Positions 48,714 to 64,000 of a DNA stretch of 64,000 nt are shown here, one piece after another. The stretch spans positions 128,001-192,000 of the forward strand of contig CAYLJV010000001.1 in the NCBI GenBank assembly GCA_964384105.1. The letters run 5' to 3'. Below the pieces are notes generated by a model. That model searched no databases and was not told the origin of the DNA. It saw only the letters and a list, made by a program, of their open reading frames with translations. Source of the DNA: Candidatus Hadarchaeota archaeon. GTDB taxonomy: Archaea; Hadarchaeota; Hadarchaeia; Hadarchaeales; JAGGTB01. A program made the position numbers and the translations under genes. Position 1 is the stretch's first letter; each line of letters begins with the position of its first letter.

Positions 48714-51035
48714 TTGGTACATGTAAGCAAGTTGGAAATGAGGGGCTTCAAGTCCTTTGGTCATAAAAAGGAGTCTTTGCCTCTCTCTTCTGGGTTAACG
48801 GCAATAGTAGGGCCTAATGGCAATGGAAAAAGCAATGTAGTGGATGCGCTTTCCTTCGTTTTGGGACAAAGAAGTGCAAAGACTCTGAGAGCTTCAGAGT
48901 TTTCTGCTTTAATTTATCACGGAAGTGAAGGCGAAAACGGTAGAAGGCCCGCGTCATCGGCTAAGGTAAAATTGTATATTAATGACGATAATAATTCTCT
49001 TTCTATTGACACAGATGAAGTGACTATTTCTCGAAAAGTTGACCGAGATGGAAAAAGTACCTATCGGATAAATGGTAATCGCTCTACTCTTCAGGAAATT
49101 CTTGATCTCATTTCAGGCACTTTGATCGGCTCAGAGGGTTATAACTTTGTTATGCAGGGCGATGTTGGCAGATTTATAAAAATGAGCTCTGAAGAGAGGA
49201 GGAAAATCATTGATGACTTGGCAGGCGTAGCAGAATTTGAGGAAAAGAAATCAAAGGCTCTTAACGAGCTTGAAAAAGTACAGACTAATTTACAGAGTCA
49301 AGAGGGAAGGATCGAAGAATTGGAGAAGAATATGAAGAGGTTAGAAAAGGAAAGGAAGGAAGCTATTGAATATAAAGAGTTAAAGAAAGAGGTAAAAGTC
49401 AAAAAGGCTTCTCTTGCAAAATTCGATGTTTTATCTTGCAAGAAAGAACTGGAGAGTATTGAAAAGGATATCAAAAAAAGAAATAAAGAACTAAAAAAGT
49501 TAGAAGAAGAAAGAAATAACATTAAAGAACGTCAAAAGGAACTTAAGGAAGAAAGAAAGAACCTAGATTCCAGAATTCAGGAAAAAAGACAGTCAGAAGT
49601 ATTAAACCGAGTGGAAAGAATCAATTCCAGAATAGAGACTTTAAAAGAGAGTTTAAGGGCAAGTGAAGAAAACTATAATGCACTTTCTGAAGAAATAGAG
49701 AAAGCAAAGAAGAAAGCCAAAGAGCTTGGTGAAAAAGTCGAAGAGGAATCCCCGCTTTCAGAAATAGAGGAATTCACTACTGATTTCCAAAACTTACATG
49801 AGAAGTTTGTGAGTTTAATTGATTTTATCAAAAATTATGATAAAGACTCAAAAGAATTTGAAGAATCTCTTTCTGAATTGAAAGGAGTCTTGGAATCACT
49901 CGATGATGTAATATCAAACTTAGAAGGACGTTTTAGGAAGGCTTTGGAGTCCCGAGAGAAGTTCATAAAGCTTGCTGAAGAAACGGATGATATCGAAAAA
50001 GCGGGTTCGGAATTTGAAAGGATTAAATCTCGCTTAGCTTCTATTAAGGGGAGACGTGAAGATGCGGAAAAAAGAATCAAGAGCTTGAAAGAAAAAATAA
50101 AGGAAAATGAGAGTTTATTAGAGGAGACTGAGAACGAAGCTGAGAAAATCAAGAATAAAATAAGCGAATTCGAGGAAAAACTTAGTAAATTGGATAAAGA
50201 GGACGATAAGCTAGGTAATAAATTCGAATCATTAGAGGAAAAGATAAGGAAAATAGAGAATAAGAAAAGCGATTTAAGGACAGAGAAGGCTTCTACGGAA
50301 GCAAAGTTGACCCAAGCTGAAGAGAATCTCAAGGAGTATGGGATTGGTGAGGTTGATATTTCTGATAAATCTCGGAAAAAATTAGAAAAAGATGTTAGTA
50401 AGATTGAAAAAAAGGTTGAGAATCTTAAACCTATTAATGAGAGGGCTATAGAGGCTTATGGGGAGGTTGAAGAAAGATATCAATCTCAAATGGAATATTA
50501 CAGTAAATTGGAAAAGGAAAAGCAAAAATTGATTGATTTTATGAAGGAAATAGATGAGAAAAAAACAGGGGTGTTCATGGAGACTTTTGAAGAGGTTTCA
50601 AAGAATTTCAGTGATATATTCAGTGAACTTTCACCTGGTGGTGAGGGGAGGCTGGTACTAGAGAATTCTGAGAGGCCATTGGATGGGGGATTGGATATAG
50701 AAGTTAAACCCAAAGGTAAAAAATTGGGTAACGTAGCTTCACTTTCGGGAGGGGAAAAAGCATTGACTGGTCTGGCGTTTATATTTGCTATTCAGAGAAC
50801 CAAACCTTCGGCTTTGTATGTCTTTGACGAACTTGATGCTCATCTTGATCCCGAAAATCAGAGGGGCGTGGCTAAGATGATTAAAAAATTCTCCAGCGAG
50901 TCACAGATAATCGTAGTCACACTTAGAGATTCGATGATGTCCGTTGCTGACAAGCTTTTTGGTGTTAATATGGATGAGGATAATATCTCTCATATAGTAT
51001 CTGTTGACTTAGAAGAATATGAGGGTGAAAATTAA
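48714..51035 (+). CDS. smc: SMC ATPase, unusually short (773 aa), no recognisable hinge
   Basis: GFKSF, GPNGNGKSN, QG Q-loop, LSGGEK, FDELDAHLD; followed by scpA and scpB. Confidence 0.9.
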   Translation: MVHVSKLEMRGFKSFGHKKESLPLSSGLTAIVGPNGNGKSNVVDALSFVLGQRSAKTLRASEFSALIYHGSEGENGRRPASSAKVKLYINDDNNSLSIDTDEVTISRKVDRDGKSTYRINGNRSTLQEILDLISGTLIGSEGYNFVMQGDVGRFIKMSSEERRKIIDDLAGVAEFEEKKSKALNELEKVQTNLQSQEGRIEELEKNMKRLEKERKEAIEYKELKKEVKVKKASLAKFDVLSCKKELESIEKDIKKRNKELKKLEEERNNIKERQKELKEERKNLDSRIQEKRQSEVLNRVERINSRIETLKESLRASEENYNALSEEIEKAKKKAKELGEKVEEESPLSEIEEFTTDFQNLHEKFVSLIDFIKNYDKDSKEFEESLSELKGVLESLDDVISNLEGRFRKALESREKFIKLAEETDDIEKAGSEFERIKSRLASIKGRREDAEKRIKSLKEKIKENESLLEETENEAEKIKNKISEFEEKLSKLDKEDDKLGNKFESLEEKIRKIENKKSDLRTEKASTEAKLTQAEENLKEYGIGEVDISDKSRKKLEKDVSKIEKKVENLKPINERAIEAYGEVEERYQSQMEYYSKLEKEKQKLIDFMKEIDEKKTGVFMETFEEVSKNFSDIFSELSPGGEGRLVLENSERPLDGGLDIEVKPKGKKLGNVASLSGGEKALTGLAFIFAIQRTKPSALYVFDELDAHLDPENQRGVAKMIKKFSSESQIIVVTLRDSMMSVADKLFGVNMDEDNISHIVSVDLEEYEGEN

Positions 51036-51709
51036 TGCCAATAATATTTGATCAACCCTTTCAGATATTGTTGAATCTGGCTCGTGAGAAGAAGATAGAT
51101 CCATGGGATGTGGAGATAGACAAGTTAGCGGATTTATATGTGGAGAAAATTAGAGAGATGAAAAAATTAGATCTTAGAGTATCTGGTAGAGCTATTTTTT
51201 CGGCTTCGGTTCTTCTAAGAATGAAGGCTGATAGTTCGCCTGGCAATGGTCATTCTGAAGATGAAGATGAGATATTGGATGACCTCGACTTTGATATACC
51301 TGAGTTGGAACCGATTACTATAATAAACAGTAGTCATCAGAAGATAACTCTCTCGGACCTTGCTACTTCTCTTCAGGAAGTTATGGAAAAACCTTCCGAA
51401 AGTAAAAGTAAAAAGAGGAAGCGAACGACAGTGAAGAATATCATGAAGGAGCTGGACGAATATCAGATTCACATAGAGGATCATATAGAGGAGTTCCACG
51501 AAAAAGTTGCAATGCTGGCCTCAAACGGGGAAATGATAAACTTTACTCAATTATTACCCGAGAGAAATAAACTAGAGGTGGTCAGAAATCTACTACTTGC
51601 TCTATTTTTGAGCTCTCGTGGAAAGATATCTTTGCATCAGGAAGAGCACTTTGGGGATATTTATATCAGATTGGAAGAGCCACCGGAGGGGATGGAATAT
51701 GGGAATTAG
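51035..51709 (+). CDS. scpA: Kleisin ScpA
   Basis: IDPWDVEI, SGRA...A..LLRMKA, C-terminal LFL...I.L.QEE.FGDI. Confidence 0.92.
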   Translation: MPIIFDQPFQILLNLAREKKIDPWDVEIDKLADLYVEKIREMKKLDLRVSGRAIFSASVLLRMKADSSPGNGHSEDEDEILDDLDFDIPELEPITIINSSHQKITLSDLATSLQEVMEKPSESKSKKRKRTTVKNIMKELDEYQIHIEDHIEEFHEKVAMLASNGEMINFTQLLPERNKLEVVRNLLLALFLSSRGKISLHQEEHFGDIYIRLEEPPEGMEYGN

Positions 51710-52205
51710 TGATGATGTTTCTACGGTAGAAGCTGCTTTGTATGCTTCTGATAGGCCACTTTCATTGGATGAATTAAAGAAGACTGTTGGTACTTCCTCT
51801 GAGACCTATATTCGAAAATTGTTGGATAGATTGAGAGATAGATATGATCGAGATGGGTCACTCGAGCTTAAGGAGACTACAGAAGATATGTTTACGGTGC
51901 AACTTCGGGAAGAATTCATGCCTAAAGTAGAAGGTATAGTACCAAAAACCAAGCTCTCAAAAGGTGCTCTCAAGACACTTGCGGTAATAGCTTATAAGCA
52001 ACCTATTAAGCAGTCCGAACTGGCAGAGATAAGAGGAGGCCGTGTTTACAAATACGTAAGACGACTCCAGGAACTTGATTTTGTTGAGGCGAAGCCGCAC
52101 GGAAGAACAAAAGTTTTGAGAACATCTAAGAAATTTGCTGGTTACTTTGGCATGGAGGATCAGATGGATAAGATAAGGGAAAAACTTCAGCAGATGGTCA
52201 AATAG
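51699..52205 (+). CDS. scpB: ScpB
   Basis: VEAALYAS, LKTLAVIAYKQPI, IRG, T..F..YFG. Confidence 0.93.
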   Translation: MGISDDVSTVEAALYASDRPLSLDELKKTVGTSSETYIRKLLDRLRDRYDRDGSLELKETTEDMFTVQLREEFMPKVEGIVPKTKLSKGALKTLAVIAYKQPIKQSELAEIRGGRVYKYVRRLQELDFVEAKPHGRTKVLRTSKKFAGYFGMEDQMDKIREKLQQMVK

Positions 52206-52290
52206 GAGTTCTATTCGAGTACTTTCGAATAGTTTTTAGAAAGGGGAGATTTTTTAATCTTTAAGTTTAAAGTGGACAGGTGGTGTTGTA

Positions 52291-52758
52291 ATGGCTAAAT
52301 GGCAAGGAAGATCTAGAAAGAAGCCGAGTAGTGGAAGAATATGGCCCAGCCGTAAAAAGCGAAAGTATGAGTTAGGTCGTGAATCTGCGGATACTAAAAT
52401 CGGAGAGGAGAAGAAAGTCCAAGTCTCTGTTAGAGGCACAGGCCAGAAGACGAGATTACTTTCTGTTAATTCTGTTAACGTGACTGATCCAGAATCCGGA
52501 GAGAGCAAGAAGGCTAGTATTAACACGGTTTTAGAAAATCCTGCAGACCCTCATCTTGCTAGACGGAACATCATAACCAAAGGTGCGATAATAGAGACGG
52601 ATATAGGAAAAGCCAGAGTTACAAGTAGGCCAGGCCAGGAACAAACCCTTAACGCAGTTTTGATAGAAGGTTCTTTCAAGAAAGAGTCTCAGAAAAAAGA
52701 GACAAAAGGAAAGGAAGAGCCCGCCGAAAAAGATGAGTCAGAATCACCGAAAGAATGA
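52291..52758 (+). CDS. rps8e: 30S ribosomal protein S8e
   Basis: [31 protein letters not shown]. Confidence 0.96.
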
Positions 52759-52805
52759 GGCACTGAGCCGAAGCATATTTTCTCTCAATTCTCTAAAAAG
52801 TAGAA

Positions 52806-53102
52806 TTAGTAATAGATCGGTCTTTGACCGGCAATTACTTGATCGACACTATGTACTACTCCACCCCACTCTTCTATCTTAGATCTGATTTCCCTGTAGT
52901 CTAGGTCTCCGTCAACTGTCAGCTTGAGTGTTTCGGTTTCTTTGTCTATCTCTAGAAGTGCGGCATCTACTCCTTCGACTCCTTCCATGGCTCCTATTTT
53001 TTCAGCGAAGTCGGGAAGTGGTGGATCATGAGGCTTTAGCACGTCCAATACTATTCGCCAGACTTTTGATTTTTGTGAAGAATCTTCAGGCATTCTGACC
53101 AA
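52806..53102 (-). CDS. DUF211 family protein
   Basis: RIVLDVLKPHDP...GGVVHSVDQV. Confidence 0.88.
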   Translation of the reverse strand: MVRMPEDSSQKSKVWRIVLDVLKPHDPPLPDFAEKIGAMEGVEGVDAALLEIDKETETLKLTVDGDLDYREIRSKIEEWGGVVHSVDQVIAGQRPIYY

Positions 53103-53194
53103 GCTTTAATCTCTCTTATTTAGTAAAAGATTTTTCTAATTTCCAAATCCCCAATATTCAAATTCTTAACACCGTTTATAGTTCTGGAGTTTCT

Positions 53195-53644
53195 ATGAAG
53201 GGCACATACGTGCTTCTAATCTGTCTTTCGGAATGCGAAAGTATTAAGATCGGGAGCCTTGGGGCCATAAAATTCGAAAAAGGCTGGTACGCTTATGTTG
53301 GTTCTGCCTTAAAATCGTTGGAAAATAGGATCGAGAGGCATATCTGTAGCGAAAAGAGTATTTATTGGCACATAGATTACCTCCTTTCTAGAGCTGAGCT
53401 CGAAAATATTTTCTATGGAGAGGGTGAAGAAAGAAGAGAATGTGGCATTGCGGAGGAGATTTCGAGAGATTTCCCGTTCATTGAAGGATTTGGTTCGAGT
53501 GATTGTCAATGCGAAAGTCATCTTTTTTATTCTAGAGATGTTTCGAAGTTGAGAGATAGTATAGTCTTGGGCTTTATAAGAAATGGATTAAAACCAATTT
53601 CTTGGTACGATGGGAAAGAGATGGCAGCAGAAGAGGAAAAATGA
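53195..53644 (+). CDS. GIY-YIG-like DUF123 protein
   Basis: KGTYVL, YAYVGSA, WHIDYL, GFGSSDC.C.SHL. Confidence 0.88.
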   Translation: MKGTYVLLICLSECESIKIGSLGAIKFEKGWYAYVGSALKSLENRIERHICSEKSIYWHIDYLLSRAELENIFYGEGEERRECGIAEEISRDFPFIEGFGSSDCQCESHLFYSRDVSKLRDSIVLGFIRNGLKPISWYDGKEMAAEEEK

Positions 53645-54221
53645 GCATTTTTACAAGCAAGCTAAAAAAGAAGGCTACAGAAGCAGAGCTACTTATAAAC
53701 TCAAACAACTTGATGACAAATACAGCCTTATTCATCCGGGGGATATAGTTGTAGACCTGGGTGCAGCGCCTGGTAGTTGGCTTCAATTTGCGAGGGATAA
53801 AGTTGGTGAAAATGGGTTTGTTTTGGGTGTTGATCTTGAGGAGATAGAAGATTTGGATTATGAAAACGTTAAAACAGTTCAAGCAGACATTACTGAATCA
53901 GAAACAATAGATATTATTCAGAAAAATCTTCCCGATTCTCCTAATATTATAATTTCGGATGCTGCGCCAAATATCACAGGGATATGGGATGTTGATCACG
54001 CTAGATCGATAGACCTGTGTAGATCTGCTTTGAAAATAGCCGATAAAGTACTGAAACAGGGCGGATTCTTATTAGTTAAGGTTTTCCAGGGTGAATTTTT
54101 CGACGAACTCTTGGAGGATTTTAAAAAGAAATTTAGTTTCTGTAAGGCTTCTAAGCCCAAAGCTTCTAGAAAAAGGAGTTCTGAAATATATATAATTGGT
54201 AAAGGTTTTTCTTCAGGCTAA
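53610..54221 (+). CDS. rlmE: 23S rRNA Um2552 methyltransferase
   Basis: GYRSRA.YKL, DLGAAPGSW, SDAAP, KPKASR..SSE. Confidence 0.95.
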   Translation: MGKRWQQKRKNEHFYKQAKKEGYRSRATYKLKQLDDKYSLIHPGDIVVDLGAAPGSWLQFARDKVGENGFVLGVDLEEIEDLDYENVKTVQADITESETIDIIQKNLPDSPNIIISDAAPNITGIWDVDHARSIDLCRSALKIADKVLKQGGFLLVKVFQGEFFDELLEDFKKKFSFCKASKPKASRKRSSEIYIIGKGFSSG

Positions 54222-54235
54222 TATTCTCGTGATTT

Positions 54236-54676
54236 TTAGTTTCTGTTTTTCTCTATATGGTCTTCGGCTATATCCCCAACTATCGGAAACTTGTAAAGTT
54301 CCCCTTTGTAGGCTTTGATCATCCCGACTACCCAAACTATGAATCCTATAATGCCCAGTATAGCTCCTACGATGGCTCCAAAAATAGGTATAGGACTTAA
54401 AATAGCCCCAACTATGAATAGTCCTAAGAATATGATCGTTGATTGAAAGGCGTGAAATCTAACGAAGTAACTTTTCTCTTCGATGAAGTAAAGAATTATT
54501 CCTGACACAAAAACTAATAGGTAGGCTAGTGCCCCTTCTAGATTTTCTTCAAGGCCTAAAGATGTTTTATTGCTCTTTTTCTGAGTTCTTTTAGTTCTTT
54601 TTAACTCAGCGCCACATTCCGGGCAGAAAGCAGCATTTTCAGGAATTTCCTCTCCACAATCTGGACAATATTTCAT
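54236..54676 (-). CDS. Zn-ribbon + DUF4870-type membrane protein
   Basis: CPDCG/CPECG; VRFHAFQS; YKFPIVG. Confidence 0.8.
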   Translation of the reverse strand: MKYCPDCGEEIPENAAFCPECGAELKRTKRTQKKSNKTSLGLEENLEGALAYLLVFVSGIILYFIEEKSYFVRFHAFQSTIIFLGLFIVGAILSPIPIFGAIVGAILGIIGFIVWVVGMIKAYKGELYKFPIVGDIAEDHIEKNRN

Positions 54677-54743
54677 GACTCATCTAAAATAGCTGTCTTT
54701 TACTTAATAATTCTTTTTCTGCTGGATGAGGTTAATAGAAGCT

Positions 54744-55904
54744 TCATTCAGATATCAATTTTGTCAAACTTTCCATCGTTGCGTCCGTTCTTATCCCATT
54801 GCTTAGAAAATGCGTTCTTGAGGCAAAATAGCCGTTTTTCCTAAGTTTTTGAATAGCATGATTGATCTTAGGTGGGGATGCACCAGATTTTGAGCAAACC
54901 TCATGGAGATCATAGAATATGGGTGGCCCTTCGTTCTCTTTTGCCAAGGTTTCGAGTAGGTTTCTTTCTTCTCCGTATAGTTTGAAGTTTCTTAGGGAGA
55001 GGTCATTTATCAGGGCTTTTATGTGTTCTTTATCTCCCATCTTTTCGAGATATAGTGGGCCCGCTTGTTTGTATTTACCACCACATTCGCAGTTTTCTGG
55101 CAGGTTTGGAAAAAAACCTTTTTTGTAAGTTCTCTTTCCGCATTGAAAACAGTGAGCTAAGTAACCTTGATCTTTCAGAATTCGGTTAGCTTTCCTTGCT
55201 CCTTGGTCAACTTGAAAGTGGATTCTGAAATAGTGTTGAGTAGCATGGCTTAGAAGGGGGATCAGAGCAAGATCAAAAGCTGCTGCTTTTCTTTGTATTG
55301 ATCCAACTAGAATTCTTAGTCCCAGTTCTCTTGAGTAGGGAGTTCTTAGGGGTGTTGAACCGTATTTTCTCTTACATGCGTTTGGATACGCTCCGCATAG
55401 GGGTGCAGTGTCAGTGGCTGTTATCAGAAGGGCACCTCTTCTAGATATTGCAGTGAAGGAAGGCTCTAGGAATGGAATGGGGGTACCAAAAGGGTCAATA
55501 TCTATAATATGGAATCTTGGTCTGTGATTATAGAGTAAAACATTAGCGTCTTCTCTCTTTGCTTCCGCTACGGAGAGTTGATTGTGTTTTATGTTTTTCT
55601 TTATGAATTCGAAGGCATCGGCTGATCTATCATTCACGACTACTTTTTTTACTCCAGAGACCTCTTTTGCATATCTTAGACCTCTAGCACCTATACCAGT
55701 TAGAACATCGCAAATTCTCAGACCATCTATACTCTTTCCGATTACTTGAACGGAAGAAACAGATATATCTCTGGATAGTTCCATTATGGGATTAAAAAAA
55801 ACAGGTGTCTTGGAAGGGACGTACTCTTTTTCAGAAGTTTTGTAGTTTTCTAGTTTTGGTACTTCTAATTTTAATTCTCCTTCTTTGATTATCTCTGTCT
55901 CCAT
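54744..55904 (-). CDS. trm1: tRNA G26 dimethyltransferase
   Basis: VFFNP.M..SRD, G.RGLRY, DIDPFGTP, TATD. Confidence 0.95.
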   Translation of the reverse strand: METEIIKEGELKLEVPKLENYKTSEKEYVPSKTPVFFNPIMELSRDISVSSVQVIGKSIDGLRICDVLTGIGARGLRYAKEVSGVKKVVVNDRSADAFEFIKKNIKHNQLSVAEAKREDANVLLYNHRPRFHIIDIDPFGTPIPFLEPSFTAISRRGALLITATDTAPLCGAYPNACKRKYGSTPLRTPYSRELGLRILVGSIQRKAAAFDLALIPLLSHATQHYFRIHFQVDQGARKANRILKDQGYLAHCFQCGKRTYKKGFFPNLPENCECGGKYKQAGPLYLEKMGDKEHIKALINDLSLRNFKLYGEERNLLETLAKENEGPPIFYDLHEVCSKSGASPPKINHAIQKLRKNGYFASRTHFLSNGIRTDATMESLTKLISE

Positions 55905-55958
55905 TTTATCCTATACAGAGTAGAGTCTCCAGCTTTAACTTGCTTTTGAAAAGATCTT

Positions 55959-56495
55959 CTACATATTTTCAAGTATTAGATTAGCTAACTCCTTTGATAT
56001 CTGATCGCGGTTATTTTTGTTTACCCCAAATATCCTGGCGTCTTTTCTTCTTTTCACTTCTCCTATGAATCCACTCTTTGATCTTTTATGTATGACTCCT
56101 ATGGTGGGTTTTTCAGATTCTAGAGCTTTCTTTACTTGTTTTTTGAACTCTTCACTGTGAACTTCCATCGGTGCTATTTCGTCAATTATTAGGAAGTCCG
56201 CTTCTCTGAGCGCTTTAGGAATTGAGTATTTACAAATTTCGTCAATATTAGAAATATTAACTCTATATTTGCTGATCTTCGGTCCGTTATCTAAATCTAC
56301 GTGCGCTAATATTTTTGATTCGCCGCTAGCTATATCTATAATTTTGAATCCTTTTCTAATTCCGTTAGACTTTATCTCTGGACAGTAAATTCCTCCAGCC
56401 TTCAGATCTTTTTCTTTTAATATTTCCGAAGTCCTTTCGACTACTGTAGTTTTCCCACTGCCTGGTGAACCCGTTATTAAAAAATTGTTTGGAAT
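55959..56495 (-). CDS. NTPase (THEP1/NTPase_1 family); probable ATT start
   Basis: ITGSPGSGKTT, RKGFKI, IIDEIAPME. Confidence 0.88.
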   Translation of the reverse strand: MPNNFLITGSPGSGKTTVVERTSEILKEKDLKAGGIYCPEIKSNGIRKGFKIIDIASGESKILAHVDLDNGPKISKYRVNISNIDEICKYSIPKALREADFLIIDEIAPMEVHSEEFKKQVKKALESEKPTIGVIHKRSKSGFIGEVKRRKDARIFGVNKNNRDQISKELANLILENM

Positions 56496-56664
56496 TCTTT
56501 CACCCTCTCTACGTGTATATTCTCTGCTTTTGCAGTACAACTTTCCGGATTTTAACGTATTAAAATTTCCAAGACTCTATTAGTTTGCAAAGAGATTATC
56601 TAGACAGTAATGTTATGAATTGAGTGTTGACAAATGAAATGTTATATATGCCGGAGGTGTTTCT

Positions 56665-57332
56665 ATAGGACCTAATTTTGTAGCTGGCCTGGACGAGGCG
56701 GGTAGAGAATCAATCCACTGGTAGATGATTCGCCCAAAGGTCCCGTTCTAGGCCCGATGGTTATATGTGGCGTCGTAGTGAGTCCAAAGGTATTCTCTGA
56801 CCTGAGAGCTGAAAGGGTAAGAGACTCTAAGCTGATAGGCCCCAATCGGAGAGAATTCTTAGACGGGTTCCTAAAAGAAAAGATGAAAAAATATGAGATT
56901 GTTGAATATTCTCCATTTGAGATAGATCGACTCAGGGGTGGAGGAACTAACATAAACCAAATAGAAGCAGAAGGTTTTGCCAAGGTACTAAATTTTCTTC
57001 AACCTTCAAAAGCCTACATAGACTCAGCGAGCGCAAATACGGAAAAATTTGCATCTGATATAGCAAATAAGTTAGAGTGCGAAGTTGAACTGATTGTTGA
57101 GCATAAAGCTGATGAAAATTATCTTCCCGTTTCTGCAGCTTCTATTATAGCTAAAGTTAGAAGAGATCAGAGAATCGATGAATTAAAAGAAGAATACGGT
57201 GAAATAGGATCAGGTTATCCTTCTGATGAGCGAACGATAAGATTTTTGGAAAGATGGGTGGATGGGAACAAGAAATTTCCAGATTTTGTGAGAAAATCTT
57301 GGAAAACTGCTCAAAGATTTTTAAATAAGTGA
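56665..57332 (+). CDS. rnhB: Ribonuclease HII, interrupted by a 32-nt intron (56706-56737); start probably ATA at 56665
   Basis: Exon 1 VAGLDEAG(R); exon 2 GPVLGPMV...VRDSK...EHKAD...VSAASIIAKV.RD...GSGYPSD. Confidence 0.88.
56706..56737 (+). other. Putative BHB mRNA intron in rnhB
   Basis: GGGT/GCCC central helix, AGA and AAA bulges, GAATCA/TGATTC inner helix; excision restores AGA GGT in frame. Confidence 0.82.
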
Positions 57333-57338
57333 GTTTTA

Positions 57339-57624
57339 AGACCCCTGTGTTGCCTTTCCTACTAACTCCAAGCTTCCTCGTCTGCCAAACGGCGTCCTCC
57401 ACTTGGTAACCCTCATGGAAGGCTTTTTCAGGGGTCTGCCCATCATGTTTCGTACCCGGGTTGTCTCTCAGTCATCGACTGGTGTCACGCCAAGCACTCC
57501 TGAAAGGACCGCATGGGTACGGTTTGTTTGATGGATACTCAAGTGTTACCTCAGCATTGCTCTGGCGATCATGTTTTCACGCCAGTCCTCGAAGCTGTGG
57601 TTTTAGCCTTTCATCGCAGTTAGT
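57339..57624 (-). ncRNA. Candidate ~285-nt highly structured, pseudoknotted ncRNA
   Basis: GC-rich island with no credible ORF; at least 8 complementary segments; A-rich linkers on the minus strand (strand inferred). Confidence 0.55.
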
Positions 57625-57818
57625 TTTCTGTATTTAACAAGTAAAAAAAGATATCCTTTTTATTATCCTGCTTAATATTTTAGTCTCACTAAAATTTCTA
57701 AAAGGGTTTTTTATATATTTTGGAGTGAATTTGAGCTTTATTTTTATATTTAAGGAGAATAAAGATAACTCAAAAATTTTCAAAATGCTTATAATAATAT
57801 AAATCTTAAAAATATTCA

Positions 57819-59213
57819 ATGTCGAAGGAGAAAGACGGATATAACTCTCCTTATATTCCCAATAACGATGCAGAAATACGCGAGGAGATGCTCCAAGAGA
57901 TCGGAGTGAAGGATGTCGAAGAGCTTTATGCAGATATTCCAGAGAGTTCTAGATTCAGGGGCAAATTGAATATTCCCCCTTCTATGTCCGAATCTGAAGT
58001 AAAAAAACATGTCTCTTCAATTCTATCAAAAAATAGGTCAAATGAAGAAGTAATTAGCTTTTTAGGAGCTGGTTGCTGGCCTCACTATGTTCCAGCACTC
58101 TGCGATGAGGTTAAGGGTAGGTCCGAATTTTTGACGGCCTATGCCGGGGAGACATATTCCGACTTGGGAAAATTTCAAGCTCTGTTTGAATTTCAGAGCA
58201 TGATGGGAGAACTACTCAATTTAGACGCGGTTGGATTAAGCGTATATGACTGGGCTACAGCCTGTGGAGATGCTGCTAGAATGGCTGCAAAGGTCACTGG
58301 GGATAGCGAGATTTTAGTTCCCAGGTTAATTAATCCGGAGAGATTATCTGTCATGAGAAATTACTGTGAGTCATTGGCAGAAGTAAATCTTGTTGATTAT
58401 AGTCCTGAGACCGGTCTTTTGGACCTGGAGGACTTAAAGGAAAAAATATCCGCGGATACAGCTGGTGTTTACATAGAAAATCCTTCTTACTTGGGGTTTA
58501 TTGAAGAAAATGGAAAGGAAATTTCAGAAATTGCCCATGATTATGACGCATTGAGTATTGTGGGAGTGGACCCGATCTCTTTAGGAGTGTTAAGCCCGCC
58601 CGGTGATTATGGTGCAGATATTGTATGTGGGGAAGGTCAACCCCTTGGTATGCACATGAACTATGGTGGGGGTTTAGTAGGAATATTAGCCTGTCGGGAC
58701 GAAGAGAGGATTGTCTCTGCTATGCCGTGTCAGTTGTTAACCATTGCTCCTGAGGCGGAGGGTGATAATTTTGGATTTTCTTGGTGGGCACTACCAGAAC
58801 GGAGTATGTATTTTGAGAGAGCTAAAGTTAAATCGATTGTTGGGAGTTCTACAGCTCTTTGGAGTATAGCTGCTGGAGTTTATTTAGCGCTGGTGGGATC
58901 TGATTTAGACAAACTCGGAGAAACCATAATGCAGAAATCTCATTATGCGAAGCAATTAATCTCCCAGATAGATGGGGTGAGTGTCCCTGTTTTTGAATCA
59001 TCTTACTTCAAGGAATTCACAGTTAATTTTGATAATACAGATAAGAGTGTGAAGGAAGTAAATCAAGAGCTTCTTGATGAGGGAATTCAGGGTGGGAAGG
59101 ATCTATCTGAGGAATTTCCCGAACTTGGAGAGACCGCACTTTACTGTGTTACTGAAATACATGACCAAGAGGAAATCGAAAAACTTGCTCGAACTCTGGA
59201 AGGGGTGTTGTGA
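57819..59213 (+). CDS. gcvPA: Glycine cleavage P-protein-like subunit 1
   Basis: FLGAG.W.HYVPA, QALFEFQS, ENPSYLG, GEGQPLG. Confidence 0.9.
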   Translation: MSKEKDGYNSPYIPNNDAEIREEMLQEIGVKDVEELYADIPESSRFRGKLNIPPSMSESEVKKHVSSILSKNRSNEEVISFLGAGCWPHYVPALCDEVKGRSEFLTAYAGETYSDLGKFQALFEFQSMMGELLNLDAVGLSVYDWATACGDAARMAAKVTGDSEILVPRLINPERLSVMRNYCESLAEVNLVDYSPETGLLDLEDLKEKISADTAGVYIENPSYLGFIEENGKEISEIAHDYDALSIVGVDPISLGVLSPPGDYGADIVCGEGQPLGMHMNYGGGLVGILACRDEERIVSAMPCQLLTIAPEAEGDNFGFSWWALPERSMYFERAKVKSIVGSSTALWSIAAGVYLALVGSDLDKLGETIMQKSHYAKQLISQIDGVSVPVFESSYFKEFTVNFDNTDKSVKEVNQELLDEGIQGGKDLSEEFPELGETALYCVTEIHDQEEIEKLARTLEGVL

Positions 59214-60763
59214 TAATGAAAGATAAGGATACGGGCTATCAGGCTGTCGGCTGGAATGAACCTATTATTTACGAGTTTGAGGGCAGGAATGTAAATAACA
59301 ATATTATCCCTGCTGCTGAGGATGAGATAAAAGAGAGTGTAGGCGATGTGACTTCAAAAATATCTCCGAAAATGAGAAGAAAAAGTTCGCCAAATCTGCC
59401 AAGACTCTCTGAACCTCAGATTGCGAGACACTATATTCGATTATCGCAGCAAACTTTTGGAGTCGACTCTGGTAGTATGCTAGGATTGGGAACCTGTACT
59501 ATGAAGTACAATCCTAAGTTCAGTGAGCAACTTGCTAGGTCTCCGAAAGCAGCGGATGTGCATCCCTTACAGGATGAGAAAATATCTCAGGGATACCTCG
59601 AACTGCTTTACAACTTGAAGAAGTTCCTTTGTGAGATCAGCGGAATGGATGAGTTTTCTCTACAACCGAGAGGTGGGGCGCATGCTGTATATACTAACGC
59701 CTGCATAATTAGGGAATATCATAAAATGAGGGATCAACTTGATCAGAAGAATGAGATAATAACTACTGTTTTGTCTCATCCGTGCAATGCAGGAGCTCCA
59801 GCAATGGCTGGTTTTAATGTTGTAAATCTTTATCCAGATGAAGAAACTGGTGTTCCTGACATGGAGGCCTTCAAGGAGGCTCTTTCGGAAAAAACTGCCG
59901 GTTTGATGATTACTGACCCGTATGATACTGGTAAATATGACGATAATCTGGAAGAATACATAGATATGATACACGAGGTTGGTGGACTTGTCGCTGTGGA
60001 TCAAGCCAATTTTAACGGGGTTATAGGTAAGCTTCGTATTGGTGATATAGGGGCGGACCTGTGCCATTTTAATCTTCATAAGACTTTTGGAGCTCCTCAT
60101 GGGTCCTACGGCCCAGCGTCTGCACCTGTTGGAGCTAAGGAGGAGTTAGAGGAACTCCTGCCAGTTCCTTCCATAAATTTTGATGGTGATAAGTATTATC
60201 TCAACTATAAAAAGGAAAATAGTATTGGTAAGGTAGCTGGATTTCAAGGAACGGCTCCTGCTCTTTTGAAAGCCTATGCGTGGATAAGAAGAATGGGAGC
60301 AGAGGGTTTGGAGGAGGCCGCGGAAATGGCTGTAATCAACAATAATTATCTATTAAAGAAACTGCTGGAGGTAAAGTGGATAGACATTTCTTATCAGAGA
60401 GATCATCGAATTCAGGAGGCAAGAATGAGTCTGCAAAAGATGAAGGAGGATACGGGGGTCGGAACCGAGGATGTCAATCGTAGGATCGTGGATTATGGGG
60501 TTTCGAGTTATTTTGAAAGTCATCATCCTTGGATAGTTTCGGAACCGTTTACACCAGAACCTACCGAATCGGCTTGGAAGGAGGAGCTTGACAGGTGGGC
60601 GGAGATAATGAAAAATATATCGGACGAGGCTTATAGTAATCCTGAGATAGTTAAAAGTGCTCCACATAAGGCACCAATAGGACGTATTGATGAGAGTCCC
60701 TTGAGTGATCCTAATAAAGCAGCTTTAACTTGGAGAGCCTATCTCAAAAAATATAGTGATTAA
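59210..60763 (+). CDS. gcvPB: Glycine cleavage P-protein-like subunit 2
   Basis: LGTCTMKYNP, HFNLHKTF..PHG, EPTES. Confidence 0.92.
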   Translation: MIMKDKDTGYQAVGWNEPIIYEFEGRNVNNNIIPAAEDEIKESVGDVTSKISPKMRRKSSPNLPRLSEPQIARHYIRLSQQTFGVDSGSMLGLGTCTMKYNPKFSEQLARSPKAADVHPLQDEKISQGYLELLYNLKKFLCEISGMDEFSLQPRGGAHAVYTNACIIREYHKMRDQLDQKNEIITTVLSHPCNAGAPAMAGFNVVNLYPDEETGVPDMEAFKEALSEKTAGLMITDPYDTGKYDDNLEEYIDMIHEVGGLVAVDQANFNGVIGKLRIGDIGADLCHFNLHKTFGAPHGSYGPASAPVGAKEELEELLPVPSINFDGDKYYLNYKKENSIGKVAGFQGTAPALLKAYAWIRRMGAEGLEEAAEMAVINNNYLLKKLLEVKWIDISYQRDHRIQEARMSLQKMKEDTGVGTEDVNRRIVDYGVSSYFESHHPWIVSEPFTPEPTESAWKEELDRWAEIMKNISDEAYSNPEIVKSAPHKAPIGRIDESPLSDPNKAALTWRAYLKKYSD

Positions 60764-60804
60764 AGTTTTTCTTGCCGTTCAGTTAATTTTTAAACTTTTA
60801 GAAA

Positions 60805-61953
60805 TTGGTTAGTTTGGAAGTTGCTATGAGAAAGTTAGGTCTTATCGTAAACCCAATAGCTGGAATGGGTGGAAAGGTTGGCCTGAAAGGAACTGATGGA
60901 AAAGAAACGCTCGAAAAAGCAGTTAAACTGGGTGCTACTCCTGTCTCCCCAGAGCGTGCGCGCATGACGCTCCATGAAATCTCGTCTTTGAGTGAAGAGA
61001 TTGAACTGGTTACTTATCCGAATGATATGGGGGAGAACGAGGCGCGGGAGAGCGGCTTCAATCCGACGGTTCTAGGACAATTGAGTTCAGAAAAAACAAC
61101 TGATCAGGATACCAAAAGAGCGGCAAATGAATTGACTGATTATGGTGTTGACCTGTTGCTCTTTGCAGGTGGAGATGGAACTGCTAGAGATATTTACGAT
61201 TCTATAGGTGAGCAAACTGTTGCTTTGGGTATACCGACGGGTGTTAAGATACACTCGAGTGTCTTTGCGTTAGATCCAAAGAATGCTGGTAGACTTGTTA
61301 AAAAGTATCTTGTAGGTGAGAGGAGAATCGAGGTCAGAGAAGGGGAGGTTATGGACATCGATGAAAGCGCTTTTAGAGAGGATAGGGTTTCTGCTAGACT
61401 TTATGGTTGTCTAAAGATACCATTTGAAAGAGAGATGGTGCAAAACGCAAAACAAAGCAGCAAGGGTTGTGAATCTCCGGAATCTATTGCCTGTGATATT
61501 GTAGAAAATATGAAAGAGAATTGTATCTACGTAGTAGGGCCGGGTACTACGACTAGAGCGATTATGAGACAACTCGGTTTAGATCATACTTTGCTTGGTG
61601 TAGATGCCGTTTGCGATAAGGAACTTATCGGTTCAGATCTTAATGAATCTCAGCTAATAGATCTTATCGAAAGTAATGAAGATAAGGATGTTAAGATAAT
61701 AGTCACGGCCATAGGTGGGCAGGGATATATATTTGGGAGAGGGAATCAACAAATCAGTCCCAAAGTAATCAAAAAAGTTGGTAAAAAAAATATAATTATA
61801 ATTTGTACTTCTGGTAAGATAGATTCCTTAAATAGCAGACCTCTTTTAGTGGACACCCCCGATAGAGAAGTCAACAAGATGTTAAGTGGTTATACTAGAG
61901 TCAAGACTGGATATAGAGAAGAAATTGTCTACAAGGTAAAAGGCTGCAAATAG
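60805..61953 (+). CDS. ATP-NAD kinase family protein
   Basis: VNPIAGMGG.VGLKGTDG, GGDGTARD, GRGNQQ. Confidence 0.85.
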   Translation: MVSLEVAMRKLGLIVNPIAGMGGKVGLKGTDGKETLEKAVKLGATPVSPERARMTLHEISSLSEEIELVTYPNDMGENEARESGFNPTVLGQLSSEKTTDQDTKRAANELTDYGVDLLLFAGGDGTARDIYDSIGEQTVALGIPTGVKIHSSVFALDPKNAGRLVKKYLVGERRIEVREGEVMDIDESAFREDRVSARLYGCLKIPFEREMVQNAKQSSKGCESPESIACDIVENMKENCIYVVGPGTTTRAIMRQLGLDHTLLGVDAVCDKELIGSDLNESQLIDLIESNEDKDVKIIVTAIGGQGYIFGRGNQQISPKVIKKVGKKNIIIICTSGKIDSLNSRPLLVDTPDREVNKMLSGYTRVKTGYREEIVYKVKGCK

Positions 61954-62168
61954 GTTTTTGGATTTTATTTAGTGGACGTTCGGATTTTTTTGGTGTAACA
62001 AAAAGGATTCAAGTCGACTGACTAGATTGTATTTCTAAATTGGGAGTTTTCTTAAGTCTGGCTTAGTTCTATAATCCAGATTTTTTTGATTATTGGTGAC
62101 CAATATTAAATCTTCAAATATTGCTTAATTTTGGATTTGAAGTTTATTTTATGGTTTCTCTTTTCGAC

Positions 62169-62196
62169 ATTTTTTGTTATGGGTGTAACAAAAAAT
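62169..62196. repeat. 28-bp palindrome, copy 2
   Basis: Identical to 7908-7935. Confidence 0.85.
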
Positions 62197-62206
62197 CCAC
62201 TTGTTT

Positions 62207-62869
62207 TCATTCTAGTTCTCTCAGGTAAGTTCTCTCTGTCCCAAAGTTCCTTGCCTTGAGAACCTGTGAGAGATCGAATCCGTAGCGGGATACGGAGGCT
62301 AGGAATGGAATGAGTATGGGAATTTTTCTCTTTGCTCGTTTTAGTGGATTACCACCTTTCTTAAGACCGCGGGAAAGTTGGGCCTCTTCTATTTCTCTGA
62401 ATTTTCTTCTCATCTCTGGAATTAGCTTCATTGTGAGTGAGGAAATAAATGCAAATTTCCAAGGGACTCCCAGTTTTTTCAGCCCGAATTCGAACTCTTC
62501 TGGTGGAGTTGTGACTACTAACCAGGCTGCCGAGAACGCTACGGAAATAAGTCTGGATGCTATCATTATGGATCTTTCAATTCCTCCGGAAGTCACTGCC
62601 AATTCGAATAGTTTCAAGTCTACAGAAGCAAATGTTCTTCCATTGGCGTAGAAAAAGAGATTTATAGTAAACAGTATTGGAACAAGAATTGTTAGTGGGG
62701 ATAGGTAGGAAAATAGCTTTGACAGATAGCGGCCTTTGAGGGATATGATTATTATCACACTTGTTAAGAGTGCCATTACAAGAGTTCTTGAGATTATGAT
62801 AGCTAGAATTATCATTGCTGAGGTGAAGATTATCTTCAATCTCGGATCTATTTTCTTAATTTGAATCAC
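62207..62869 (-). CDS. ecfT: ECF transporter T component
   Basis: IDPRLK, AQLSRG, LKARNF. Confidence 0.88.
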   Translation of the reverse strand: MIQIKKIDPRLKIIFTSAMIILAIIISRTLVMALLTSVIIIISLKGRYLSKLFSYLSPLTILVPILFTINLFFYANGRTFASVDLKLFELAVTSGGIERSIMIASRLISVAFSAAWLVVTTPPEEFEFGLKKLGVPWKFAFISSLTMKLIPEMRRKFREIEEAQLSRGLKKGGNPLKRAKRKIPILIPFLASVSRYGFDLSQVLKARNFGTERTYLRELE

Positions 62870-63614
62870 CTTCTCGAAAAATCTTCAGAGCTTCTTCGAA
62901 ATTTTTTGGAGGATCTATTCCCTTGAATTCTGCCCATTCTACGATTTGGGGAACCTCTAAGCCTGCCTTATTGCAGAGTTCTCGATTCGAGAGAATCGAT
63001 TTAGCATTTTCATCTTTCAGGATTTTTCCGTTTTCTAGAAGGATAACTCTATCCGCAAATTCGTAGGCGAAATCGGAGTTGTGTGTTGAAAGTATTATGG
63101 TCGTCGATTTCTTCAGATATCTTAATAATTCCCCTATTTCCCTCTCGGCTTTTCTGTGTAGGCTTTTGACGGGCTCGTCTAGCACCATTAATTTTTGGAC
63201 TCCTGAAAGTACTGAAGCCATAGAGACCTTTCTCATCTCCCCTGCAGAGAGGGTAAAAGGTGATCGGTCCGCAAGCTCGAGTATATCGAGTTTTGAGAGC
63301 GCTTCTTCAGCTCGTTTCTTGTAGTTTAGATCGAGATTTTTTGGAAAAAACTCTACTTCTTCTCTGACTGTGTTGGCGAAGAAACCATCCTCGGGGTTTT
63401 CTGGAACAAATCCTACAAAACTTTCTTTTCCAACTTCGACCTCCCCTTTTTTTGGATCAAGCAATCCTGCTATCAGTTTTAGAAGAGTGGTTTTACCAGA
63501 ACCGTTTTTTCCCATTAGGGCCGTCAATTCCTCTTGTATTTCTAGAGAGACATCGGATATTGCTACTCTATCAGAATCCTTATATGAGAAGTAGATGTTC
63601 TTCGCTTTAACCAT
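62856..63614 (-). CDS. ECF transporter ATPase
   Basis: GKNGSGKTT, LSAGE, LDEP, STHN. Confidence 0.88.
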   Translation of the reverse strand: MVKAKNIYFSYKDSDRVAISDVSLEIQEELTALMGKNGSGKTTLLKLIAGLLDPKKGEVEVGKESFVGFVPENPEDGFFANTVREEVEFFPKNLDLNYKKRAEEALSKLDILELADRSPFTLSAGEMRKVSMASVLSGVQKLMVLDEPVKSLHRKAEREIGELLRYLKKSTTIILSTHNSDFAYEFADRVILLENGKILKDENAKSILSNRELCNKAGLEVPQIVEWAEFKGIDPPKNFEEALKIFREGDSN

Positions 63615-63999
63615 CTTTTTCCACTTCCGCTTTCAGTTCTAATTCGAGAGGGAGTCGGACCCCCTCAGAGTATAGTTCGGATATGATCTCTTTCGGTTTT
63701 CCCTGATTTCTGATACGCCCGTTCTTCAAGAGTACGATTCGATCAACTATTGGAAATAGATCCTTGATGTCGTGTTCGGCTATTATGAGAGTTTTTTCCT
63801 GTTTTTTTATTTTCTTTATTTGATCTATCATCATTTTCTTGTTTGGAGAATCGAGCATCGAGAGAGGTTCGTCAAGTATCAAGATGTCAGGTTCGGTGAC
63901 CAATACTCCTACAAGAGCTACTTTCGCTGCTTCTCCAGAAGAGAGTTCTTTGGTCTCTCTTTCTAGGAAGTCCGTTAGATTGTAGACTTCAGCGTATTT
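63607..63999 (-). CDS. ECF transporter ATPase, C-terminal part (runs off window end)
   Basis: LSSGE...ILDEPLSMLD...AEHD. Confidence 0.85.
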   Translation of the reverse strand, partial: KYAEVYNLTDFLERETKELSSGEAAKVALVGVLVTEPDILILDEPLSMLDSPNKKMMIDQIKKIKKQEKTLIIAEHDIKDLFPIVDRIVLLKNGRIRNQGKPKEIISELYSEGVRLPLELELKAEVEKDG

Positions 64000-64000
64000 T

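Follow-up and report, generated by a model that had tools for sequence, protein, structure and literature searches.

The rnhB locus

We analysed a DNA stretch of 64,000 nucleotides (nt), hereafter the window (contig CAYLJV010000001.1 of GCA_964384105.1, positions 128,001 to 192,000), from a Candidatus Hadarchaeota metagenome-assembled genome (MAG) of 1.62 Mb, with 12 contigs and 90% completeness. Its rnhB gene, encoding ribonuclease HII (RNase HII), is the sole copy, since only one RNase HII match was found in the whole genome. The Arg codon of its catalytic motif, DEAGR|GP, is split by a 32-nt insert (56706-56737), in which we recognize a probable bulge-helix-bulge (BHB), or tRNA-type, intron of the pre-mRNA. 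The gene is organized as follows:

56653..56659 (+), Shine-Dalgarno-like GGAGGTG, read from the sequence, 5 nt 5' of the presumed start; presumed ribosome-binding function
56665..56705 (+), rnhB exon 1, ATA GGA CCT AAT TTT GTA GCT GGC CTG GAC GAG GCG GGT AG
56706..56737 (+), putative BHB intron of 32 nt, with boundaries placed by the rule of cutting after the second bulge nucleotide
56738..57332 (+), rnhB exon 2, A GGT CCC GTT CTA GGC CCG ..., with the stop TGA at 57330-57332

The exon 1 translation ends in ...VAGLDEAGR, and exon 2 encodes 197 amino acids (aa) beginning GPVLGPMVICG..., with the frame open to the stop. Exon 2 matches the Pfam family RNase_HII (PF01351, E 5.6e-40) over profile positions 9-198 of 199. 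Since this match begins at position 9, the first eight positions, including the catalytic Asp and Glu, are in exon 1. With the insert left in, the exon 1 frame reaches a TAG at 56722-56724, and an unspliced mRNA would give either a peptide of 19 residues or a protein shortened at its N-terminus and devoid of the catalytic Asp and Glu. The split motif, its coordinates and the in-frame TAG had been pointed out in an earlier note made from the letters of this DNA, and the sequence bears them out letter for letter. The same note proposed that a cut after the second base of each bulge would join AG and A into an in-frame Arg codon, and the translations of the two exons indeed rebuild DEAGRGP. Both cuts can be shifted one base 3' with an identical mRNA as the result.

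The note had also called for a check of the reads against an assembly artefact. Independent assembly of the DNA run X1, which may come from the sample that yielded the MAG itself, gave a contig of 853 nt that is identical to the window over 55960-56812 (0 differences), insert included, and the insert is therefore present in the DNA. The contig from a second DNA run, X2, stops at 56702 with a depth of 3, hence it is uninformative on the insert.

The predicted bulge-helix-bulge structure

The elements of the predicted fold, from the outside of the 5' arm to the outside of the 3' arm, are:

56686..56699 (+), 5' strand of the outer, exon-exon helix; in the energy fold, 56697-99 pairs with 56740-42, 56694-95 with 56744-45, and 56686-93 with 56747-54
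56700..56703 (+), 5' strand of the central helix, GGGU, consisting of the last base of the Ala codon and the Gly codon; pairs with 56732-56735
56704..56706 (+), 5' bulge AGA, unpaired in the minimum-energy fold; predicted cut at 56705/56706
56707..56731 (+), inner hairpin, GAAUCA (56707-12) paired with UGAUUC (56726-31) and a loop between them; holds the in-frame TAG at 56722-24
56732..56735 (+), 3' strand of the central helix, GCCC, inside the intron
56736..56738 (+), 3' bulge AAA; predicted cut at 56737/56738
56740..56754 (+), 3' strand of the outer helix, in the codons for G-P-V-L-G-P

Archaeal pre-tRNAs have the same geometry: the central helix is separated from the inner helix by the 5' bulge and from the outer helix by the 3' bulge. 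When 56685-56755 is folded for minimum energy (-28.8 kcal/mol, z = -2.41), the central helix, the AGA bulge and the inner helix form exactly as listed; the central and inner helices and the two bulges are thus found where the earlier note had placed them. The outer helix forms there only with a 3' bulge of 4 nt (AAAG), as G56739 is also unpaired. Because 4 of 200 shuffled sequences fold equally well, the folding energy alone is only moderately unusual.

Distribution across archaea

Every genome of the genus (7/7) has an insert at the same place of rnhB, and in the six congeners its length is 25-26 nt. The junctions are kept throughout the genus (GGGUAG|A ... GCCCAA|A), while the inner helices of the congeners differ in sequence but still pair (GGAUCA/UGGUCC, GAGCCG/CGGCUC, GAAUCGA/UCGAUUC). 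Exon 2 has 56-63% identity to the congeners, and wherever the whole gene is available, in congeners and other loci, its frame is intact over about 200 aa.

From 66 Hadarchaeota genomes sampled, rnhB was found in 61, being a C-terminal fragment in 2 of them. The gene is interrupted in 9 of the 59 assessable cases, namely the 7 genomes of this genus and two of another family (G028 and G030). Other species from the genus of G030 (G010 and G039) have an uninterrupted gene, as seen in their sequences, and G042 and G043 are also uninterrupted, judging by the start of the match.

In a set of 80 related loci, the same interruption was found in many MAGs labelled as Promethearchaeota, Odin- or Hodarchaeota, and in one Nanohalarchaeota MAG. 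We then counted it in Asgard archaea, where 387 of 400 sampled genomes have rnhB. The gene was taken as interrupted when the match span was about 30 nt too long or when the match started at residue 28-30; by this criterion, a hand count gave 81 interrupted genes among the best 150 matches, with 352 matches following these. The criterion agreed with the sequence in all 20 regions compared (15/15 predicted as interrupted and 5/5 as uninterrupted). It was adopted because a previous marker, matches with stops inside, pointed to genes that proved uninterrupted (G215, G200, G076, G078), and this marker was dropped. One of the 15 interrupted Asgard loci compared (L128) has an assembly gap directly after the intron. 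The Asgard genome G266 contains both an interrupted rnhB (C110:13838-14578) and an uninterrupted fragment at a contig end (C7:2-484, residues 2-162), which could come from mixed strains, from a second copy of the gene or from an error in binning.

For other phyla we used R1, a gene-specific covariance model built from 41 distinct rnhB sites. Against the 1.6-Mb genome, it gave a single match, at the rnhB site (74 bits, E 1.4e-16). A match of 68-82 nt indicates an interrupted gene and one of 43 nt an uninterrupted gene, and among fetched sequences this rule was right for 19/19 long matches, all with the intron, and 14/14 short ones, all intron-less. The many genomes lacking an R1 match say nothing either way. 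The searches gave the following:

Nanohaloarchaeota-labelled: 70 genomes searched, 6 of 23 matched genes interrupted
Second DPANN-like phylum, with genomes of about 1 Mb: 151 genomes searched, 17 of 49 matched genes interrupted
Thermoproteota: 151 genomes searched, 2 of 30 matched genes interrupted
Thermoplasmatota: 151 genomes searched, 1 of 42 matched genes interrupted
Methanobacteriota: 151 genomes searched, 0 of 70 matched genes interrupted

Conserved phase and covariation

Within the sequences recovered, we have found 58 distinct intron regions, with 25-33, 38 and 39 nt among their lengths. All of them have the same phase: two bases of an Arg codon (once Lys) precede the intron and one follows it. 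The 5' cut site reads AG|A or AG|U in 57 and AA|A, the Lys case, in the remaining one; DEAGK also occurs in uninterrupted rnhB genes. In two sequences (L035 and L127) Arg is obtained only by the rule-based cut. The central helix has 3-4 of its 4 pairs in all 58, at least 3 having been a requirement for selection.

The covariation analysis was made on 41 distinct sequences, admitted by a filter only if the joined codon was Arg or Lys and no more than one of the 4 central pairs was missing. The central helix (columns 16-19 with 50-53) is 95.1% paired, and 2 of its 4 pairs changed on both sides. Pair 16-53 appears as UA (18), GC (10), UG (5), CG (3), AU (1) and GU (1), and pair 19-50 as UG (26), CG (9) and GC (5). 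As the 5' strand of this helix is made of the Ala wobble base and the Gly codon, synonymous exon positions covary with bases of the intron. In the inner helix, 88.5% paired, all 6 pairs changed on both sides, giving 8 such pairs for both helices. The covariation score is 0.394, against 0.226 ± 0.009 in shuffled alignments (0/500 as high), a contrast inflated by the relatedness of the sequences, and at most 0.104 with slid partners.

An alignment of rnhB from related genomes had been named in the note as a check, and it places the insert at the same codon and phase in several phyla. What the note held to speak against an intron, relatives carrying the insert with unconserved pairing, is contradicted by the compensatory changes of the central and inner helices.

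Splicing machinery

Archaeal EndA cuts after the second nucleotide of each bulge. The genome has one EndA gene, coding for 178 aa with the catalytic domain PF01974 (119 bits) and an N-terminal PF02778, a domain architecture that looks like the homotetrameric alpha4 type. A single gene was also found for RtcB (PF01139, 594 bits). ARAGORN detected 48 tRNA genes, several of them with introns at the canonical position (37/38). Four of these introns (Met, Arg-CCU, Leu-CAA and one with anticodon UCA) form a strict BHB with 5-bp outer helices, and their 3' bulges are AA|A or UA|A, the same as in rnhB.

The EndA gene itself (C1:105623-106156) lies outside the window in L111 (G000 C1:104375-107632), in a row on one strand with a tRNA-Trp (C1:105316-105457, with a 65-nt intron by ARAGORN) and a presumed tryptophanyl-tRNA synthetase (366 aa, read from the sequence). 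EndA is thus flanked by a substrate tRNA and probably by the synthetase of that tRNA.

A probable intron in the rnhB pre-mRNA

We consider it highly likely that the insert is an archaeal BHB intron in the pre-mRNA of rnhB. The constant phase, the conservation across phyla, the covariation and the presence of EndA and RtcB genes all support this interpretation, which the earlier note had reached from the window. The same insert at the same codon in many distant archaea makes its removal from the mRNA very probable, at least ancestrally. In the transcript, the GGGU that ends exon 1 would pair with the GCCC at the 3' end of the intron, leaving a bulge of 3 nt on each strand and the hairpin of the intron beyond. 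EndA would then cleave after the second base of each bulge, and RtcB would join AG and A into the Arg codon of DEAGRGP, with the release of a 32-nt intron, probably circular. Such a pathway could couple ribonucleotide repair to tRNA splicing in a regulatory manner.

Several observations weigh against this interpretation. The outer helix is weak: as the earlier note had remarked, it is relaxed, and in strict register C56699-G56739 is its sole pair, while with a 3' bulge of 4 nt it has an interrupted 3+2 bp. Across the 41 aligned sequences, the proximal outer helix, in the register with the 4-nt bulge, is 92.7% paired but only with one-sided variation, its bases being constrained by the D-E-A and G-P-V codons, and the distal part is 65.9% paired. 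The tRNA introns of the same genome have outer helices of 5 bp. This matters because the alpha4 type, which the EndA of this genome resembles, is a strict enzyme according to PMC5829648 and leaves relaxed motifs uncut; the broad-specificity heterotetrameric EndA reported there is that of Asgard archaea. By energy folding, just 18 of the 58 distinct sequences form the central helix in full (1 of 290 in a control with shuffled introns); the 18 are mostly from Hadarchaeota and DPANN, and many Asgard versions, with central helices rich in G-U pairs, fold otherwise. The filter applied to the alignment somewhat biases it toward structure. In two RNA runs over 55900-57900, reads were found only at 57344-57607 and, in X10, at 55926-56094, leaving rnhB uncovered.

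The start codon raises a further doubt. Exon 1 contains no in-frame ATG, GTG or TTG. The ATA at 56665 occupies the position of the ATG in 5 of 6 congeners, 9 codons 5' of the Asp codon (10 codons in the sixth, L002), so that AUA would serve as the start codon of rnhB. An ATG does occur at 56648, but in a frame other than that of rnhB, and this frame ends at the TAG at 56666. ATA in place of ATG suggests either near-cognate initiation or a recent loss of the start codon, and since it is the only start at hand in this frame, the copy in the window could be poorly expressed or beginning to decay.

Another explanation would be that rnhB is a pseudogene, inactivated by a small hairpin element inserted by chance in the motif. 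The frameshift and the stop carried by the insert, the ATA and the position of the gene outside the coverage of both RNA runs would fit. However, this is the only RNase HII match of the genome, exon 2 is open over 197 codons and 56-63% identical to congeners that all have the insert at the same place, and phase and pairing are kept in 58 sequences of several phyla, which would not be expected in a dead gene. We therefore regard inactivation as very unlikely.

Cleavage by EndA not followed by ligation, with the BHB acting as a switch that destroys or down-regulates the rnhB mRNA, seems to us just as improbable. A precedent is the yeast TSEN, which cuts mRNAs without splicing them, in an endonuclease-initiated decay (PMC10485636, in the part consulted), and a BHB with a relaxed outer helix might be cut poorly or only under some conditions. 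On the other hand, if the exons were left apart, the sole gene would yield no functional RNase HII, and the rebuilding of Arg or Lys in 58/58 sequences despite varied intron lengths would have no purpose. The RtcB gene is also present.

Translational recoding, in which the ribosome would hop or shift across the 32 nt as in the bypass of T4 gene 60, is extremely unlikely. The GGU codons before (56701-03) and after (56739-41) the insert, with a hairpin and a stop between them, have a superficial likeness to take-off and landing sites. However, a hop from GGU to GGU would remove the conserved Arg and Gly of DEAGRGP, the corresponding codons do not match in relatives (upstream GGU/GGC/GGG, downstream GGC/GGA/GGG), and the covarying BHB pairing is needless for a bypass. 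An artefact of assembly or sequencing, conceivable for a metagenome-assembled draft of 12 contigs and 90% completeness, has a negligible chance given the independent DNA-run assembly identical over 55960-56812 and the homologous insert in dozens of independently assembled genomes. Two further candidates were excluded: a group I or II intron, which would have to be far larger than 25-39 nt, and a split gene in which exon 2 is translated on its own, since the product would lack the catalytic Asp and Glu.

Evolution and neighbouring LAGLIDADG genes

We built a quick maximum-likelihood tree from only the exon 2 part of 125 distinct RNase HII proteins. The sequences group by host lineage, and those of this genus, 7 in number, come out as a single clade (support 100) within a Hadarchaeota group; the Asgard clade has 50 entries, 31 interrupted and 19 uninterrupted. 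Five sequences titled 'uncultured Methanosarcinales archaeon' (L099, L101, L103, L104, L090), from genomes of about 0.9 Mb, group with Woese- and Nanoarchaea. For L099, the sample of its phylum was also identical to that of the DPANN-like G069, and the titles of the five look wrong. The intron trait requires at least 12 changes on the tree, at least 4 of them forced by well-supported branches, against a mean of 35.3 when shuffled. At least 12 changes on a tree grouped by host lineage imply that the intron was not carried by one transferred gene; judging from these sequences, it has been gained or lost many times at one site.

The neighbourhood of rnhB was also investigated. Outside Asgard and Hadarchaeota, 5 of 19 intron-bearing loci have an open reading frame (ORF) with the Pfam domain LAGLIDADG_3 abutting or close 5' of rnhB and on the same strand. 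These ORFs, coding for 300-385 aa, are:

L133, 1593-2642 (-), LAGLIDADG_3 by Pfam
L134, 1697-2599 (-), LAGLIDADG_3 by Pfam
L138, 444-1484 (+), LAGLIDADG_3 by Pfam
L143, 333-1484 (+), LAGLIDADG_3 by Pfam
L144, 1585-2631 (-), LAGLIDADG_3 by Pfam

They belong to two DPANN-like phyla, and 4 of the 5 have a TrmB-like winged helix after LAGLIDADG_3. From the end of the ORF to the start of the intron-bearing rnhB there are no more than about 10 nt in four loci and about 100 nt in L134, and these ORFs lie about 40-50 nt from the intron site. The winged-helix part alone was found in three more intron-bearing loci (L135, L070 = L137, and L146). The remaining scanned upstream ORFs of intron-bearing loci are unrelated neighbours or have no Pfam match. 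Among 9 uninterrupted DPANN-like rnhB loci, neither LAGLIDADG_3 nor the winged helix was found (0/9), with 6 of the upstream ORFs matching no Pfam family. With a regular expression, no LAGLIDADG motif had been found in the ORFs next to rnhB, and it was Pfam that later matched the five.

In Asgard archaea, the ORF immediately upstream is another one, which codes for about 335-350 aa and has an HTH_3 (XRE-type) domain in its middle part. It is on the same strand as rnhB and often overlaps the rnhB start. It is present regardless of the intron (L037:426-1424, L044:405-1436 and L035:220-1278 compared with L046:453-1463). In the window, the neighbours of rnhB are an opposite-strand NTPase gene and an H/ACA-like RNA, and no endonuclease gene was detected next to it by Pfam. 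Likewise, the scanned upstream ORFs of the congeners L002, L003 and L006, and of L017, gave no LAGLIDADG match. The two LAGLIDADG_3 matches of the genome are on other contigs. L166 (G000 C5:37065-37346) has LAGLIDADG_3 with 55.5 bits inside a frame of 1650 aa, probably an intein in a large protein.

Because a gene resembling a LAGLIDADG endonuclease abuts rnhB in some DPANN genomes, these data suggest that the intron spread by homing into a highly conserved site, and that in the window it is an orphan with no adjoining endonuclease gene. As neither the window nor the congeners have a LAGLIDADG neighbour, homing is a plausible origin for the family rather than a property of this locus. A more complete scenario is possible but doubtful: BHB mini-introns would be mobile, the LAGLIDADG-winged-helix endonuclease of DPANN archaea would cut the intron-less site, and repair would copy the intron in, destroying the target site that codes for DEAGRGP. 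In this way the introns would cross phyla and persist as orphans spliced by EndA and RtcB.

Comparison with known systems

A BHB intron in the cbf5 pre-mRNA of Crenarchaeota was reportedly described by Watanabe in 2002 and by Yoshinari in 2006. It is patchy among relatives, with gains and losses, as far as the consulted parts of PMC2738675 (Yokobori 2009) and PMC10485636 go. Both are short introns in a protein gene, with a somewhat relaxed BHB and a patchy distribution; removal by EndA and ligation occur in cbf5 and are predicted for rnhB. They are not the same intron family, as cbf5 encodes a pseudouridine synthase. The cbf5 intron is found in Desulfurococcales and Sulfolobales, whereas that of rnhB is found in Hadarchaeota, Asgard, DPANN-like phyla and a few Thermoproteota and Thermoplasmatota. 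Unlike in cbf5, the rnhB intron is within the catalytic motif, at one identical codon and phase across phyla. The cbf5 intron is also linked to a heterotetrameric EndA (PMC10485636, in part), whereas the host of the rnhB intron looks alpha4-type, and splicing was demonstrated by experiment in cbf5, while for rnhB it is predicted.

In Haloferax volcanii, the HVO_1309 mRNA is cleaved by EndA and appears spliced in RNA sequencing, according to sections of PMC10485636 and PMC7714728. It is the second mRNA documented as a substrate of archaeal EndA and, like the predicted substrate rnhB, comes from a non-crenarchaeal host with an EndA other than the heterotetrameric type. It differs in being an unrelated gene from a single organism, with cross-phylum conservation of the site unreported in the parts of the sources consulted. 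With the pre-tRNA introns of its own genome, the rnhB intron shares a 4-bp helix between two 3-nt bulges and 3' bulges of AA|A or UA|A type; the difference is the outer helix, which in the tRNAs is the 5-bp anticodon stem in strict register, and in rnhB 1 bp, or 3+2 bp with the 4-nt bulge.

In collaborative homing, a free-standing endonuclease lies beside an intron that interrupts its target, as with F-CphI and the psbA intron of cyanophages. The predicted LAGLIDADG_3 and winged-helix ORF abutting the intron-bearing rnhB of DPANN archaea has a similar arrangement. The psbA intron, however, is a group I intron while that of rnhB is a BHB intron, and the window and the congeners have no endonuclease neighbour.

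A 2023 review names two archaeal genes with endonuclease-spliced mRNAs, cbf5 and HVO_1309, and expects more (PMC10485636, in the part consulted). For Asgard archaea, the consulted parts of PMC11291895 and of the preprint 10.64898/2026.10.13.758758 deal with tRNA introns only. No account of a BHB intron in RNase HII came up in a search of the main texts of freely available papers, nor in the consulted parts of PMC3082918, PMC12397907 and PMC13149111. The rnhB intron would thus add a third gene to cbf5 and HVO_1309, and also breadth, with Hadarchaeota, a large share of Asgard archaea and DPANN-like lineages. Asgard archaea are the closest prokaryotic relatives of eukaryotes, and RNase HII is a nuclease of replication and repair, which as the sole enzyme of its kind would become dependent on EndA and RtcB. 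Automatic annotation will call an intron-bearing rnhB frameshifted or truncated, and RNase HII will seem absent or broken in many archaeal MAGs. In these genes, synonymous positions of the exon can also be seen to evolve together with the intron, and the case is a clean one. As one site has been used repeatedly, sometimes beside a LAGLIDADG gene, the gain of BHB introns, a long-open question, becomes testable. If homing were indeed responsible, tRNA-type introns in archaeal mRNAs would be a horizontally spreading class rather than a crenarchaeal curiosity, and in about half of the sampled Asgard genomes RNase HII would rely on tRNA-splicing enzymes.

Other features of the window and the genome

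A scan of the whole AT-rich genome for mRNA BHB introns, combining the geometry with the joining of ORFs, gave 946 matches, with rnhB among them, and is far too unspecific. Rfam at the gathering threshold gave no match in 50000-64000. Directly downstream of rnhB there is a structured RNA at 57343-57653 (-), the only part of 55900-57900 at high depth in two metatranscriptome runs (in X10, the summed depth per bin reaches 136). It has a weak similarity, over the full model length, to the HgcG/Pab40 family of H/ACA guides (RF00064; 25 bits with a gathering threshold of 77, E 4.6e-5), and is probably a multi-hairpin H/ACA small RNA too divergent for Rfam. A gene resembling the glycine-cleavage P-protein (Pfam GDC-P) is found at 57819-59213 (+).

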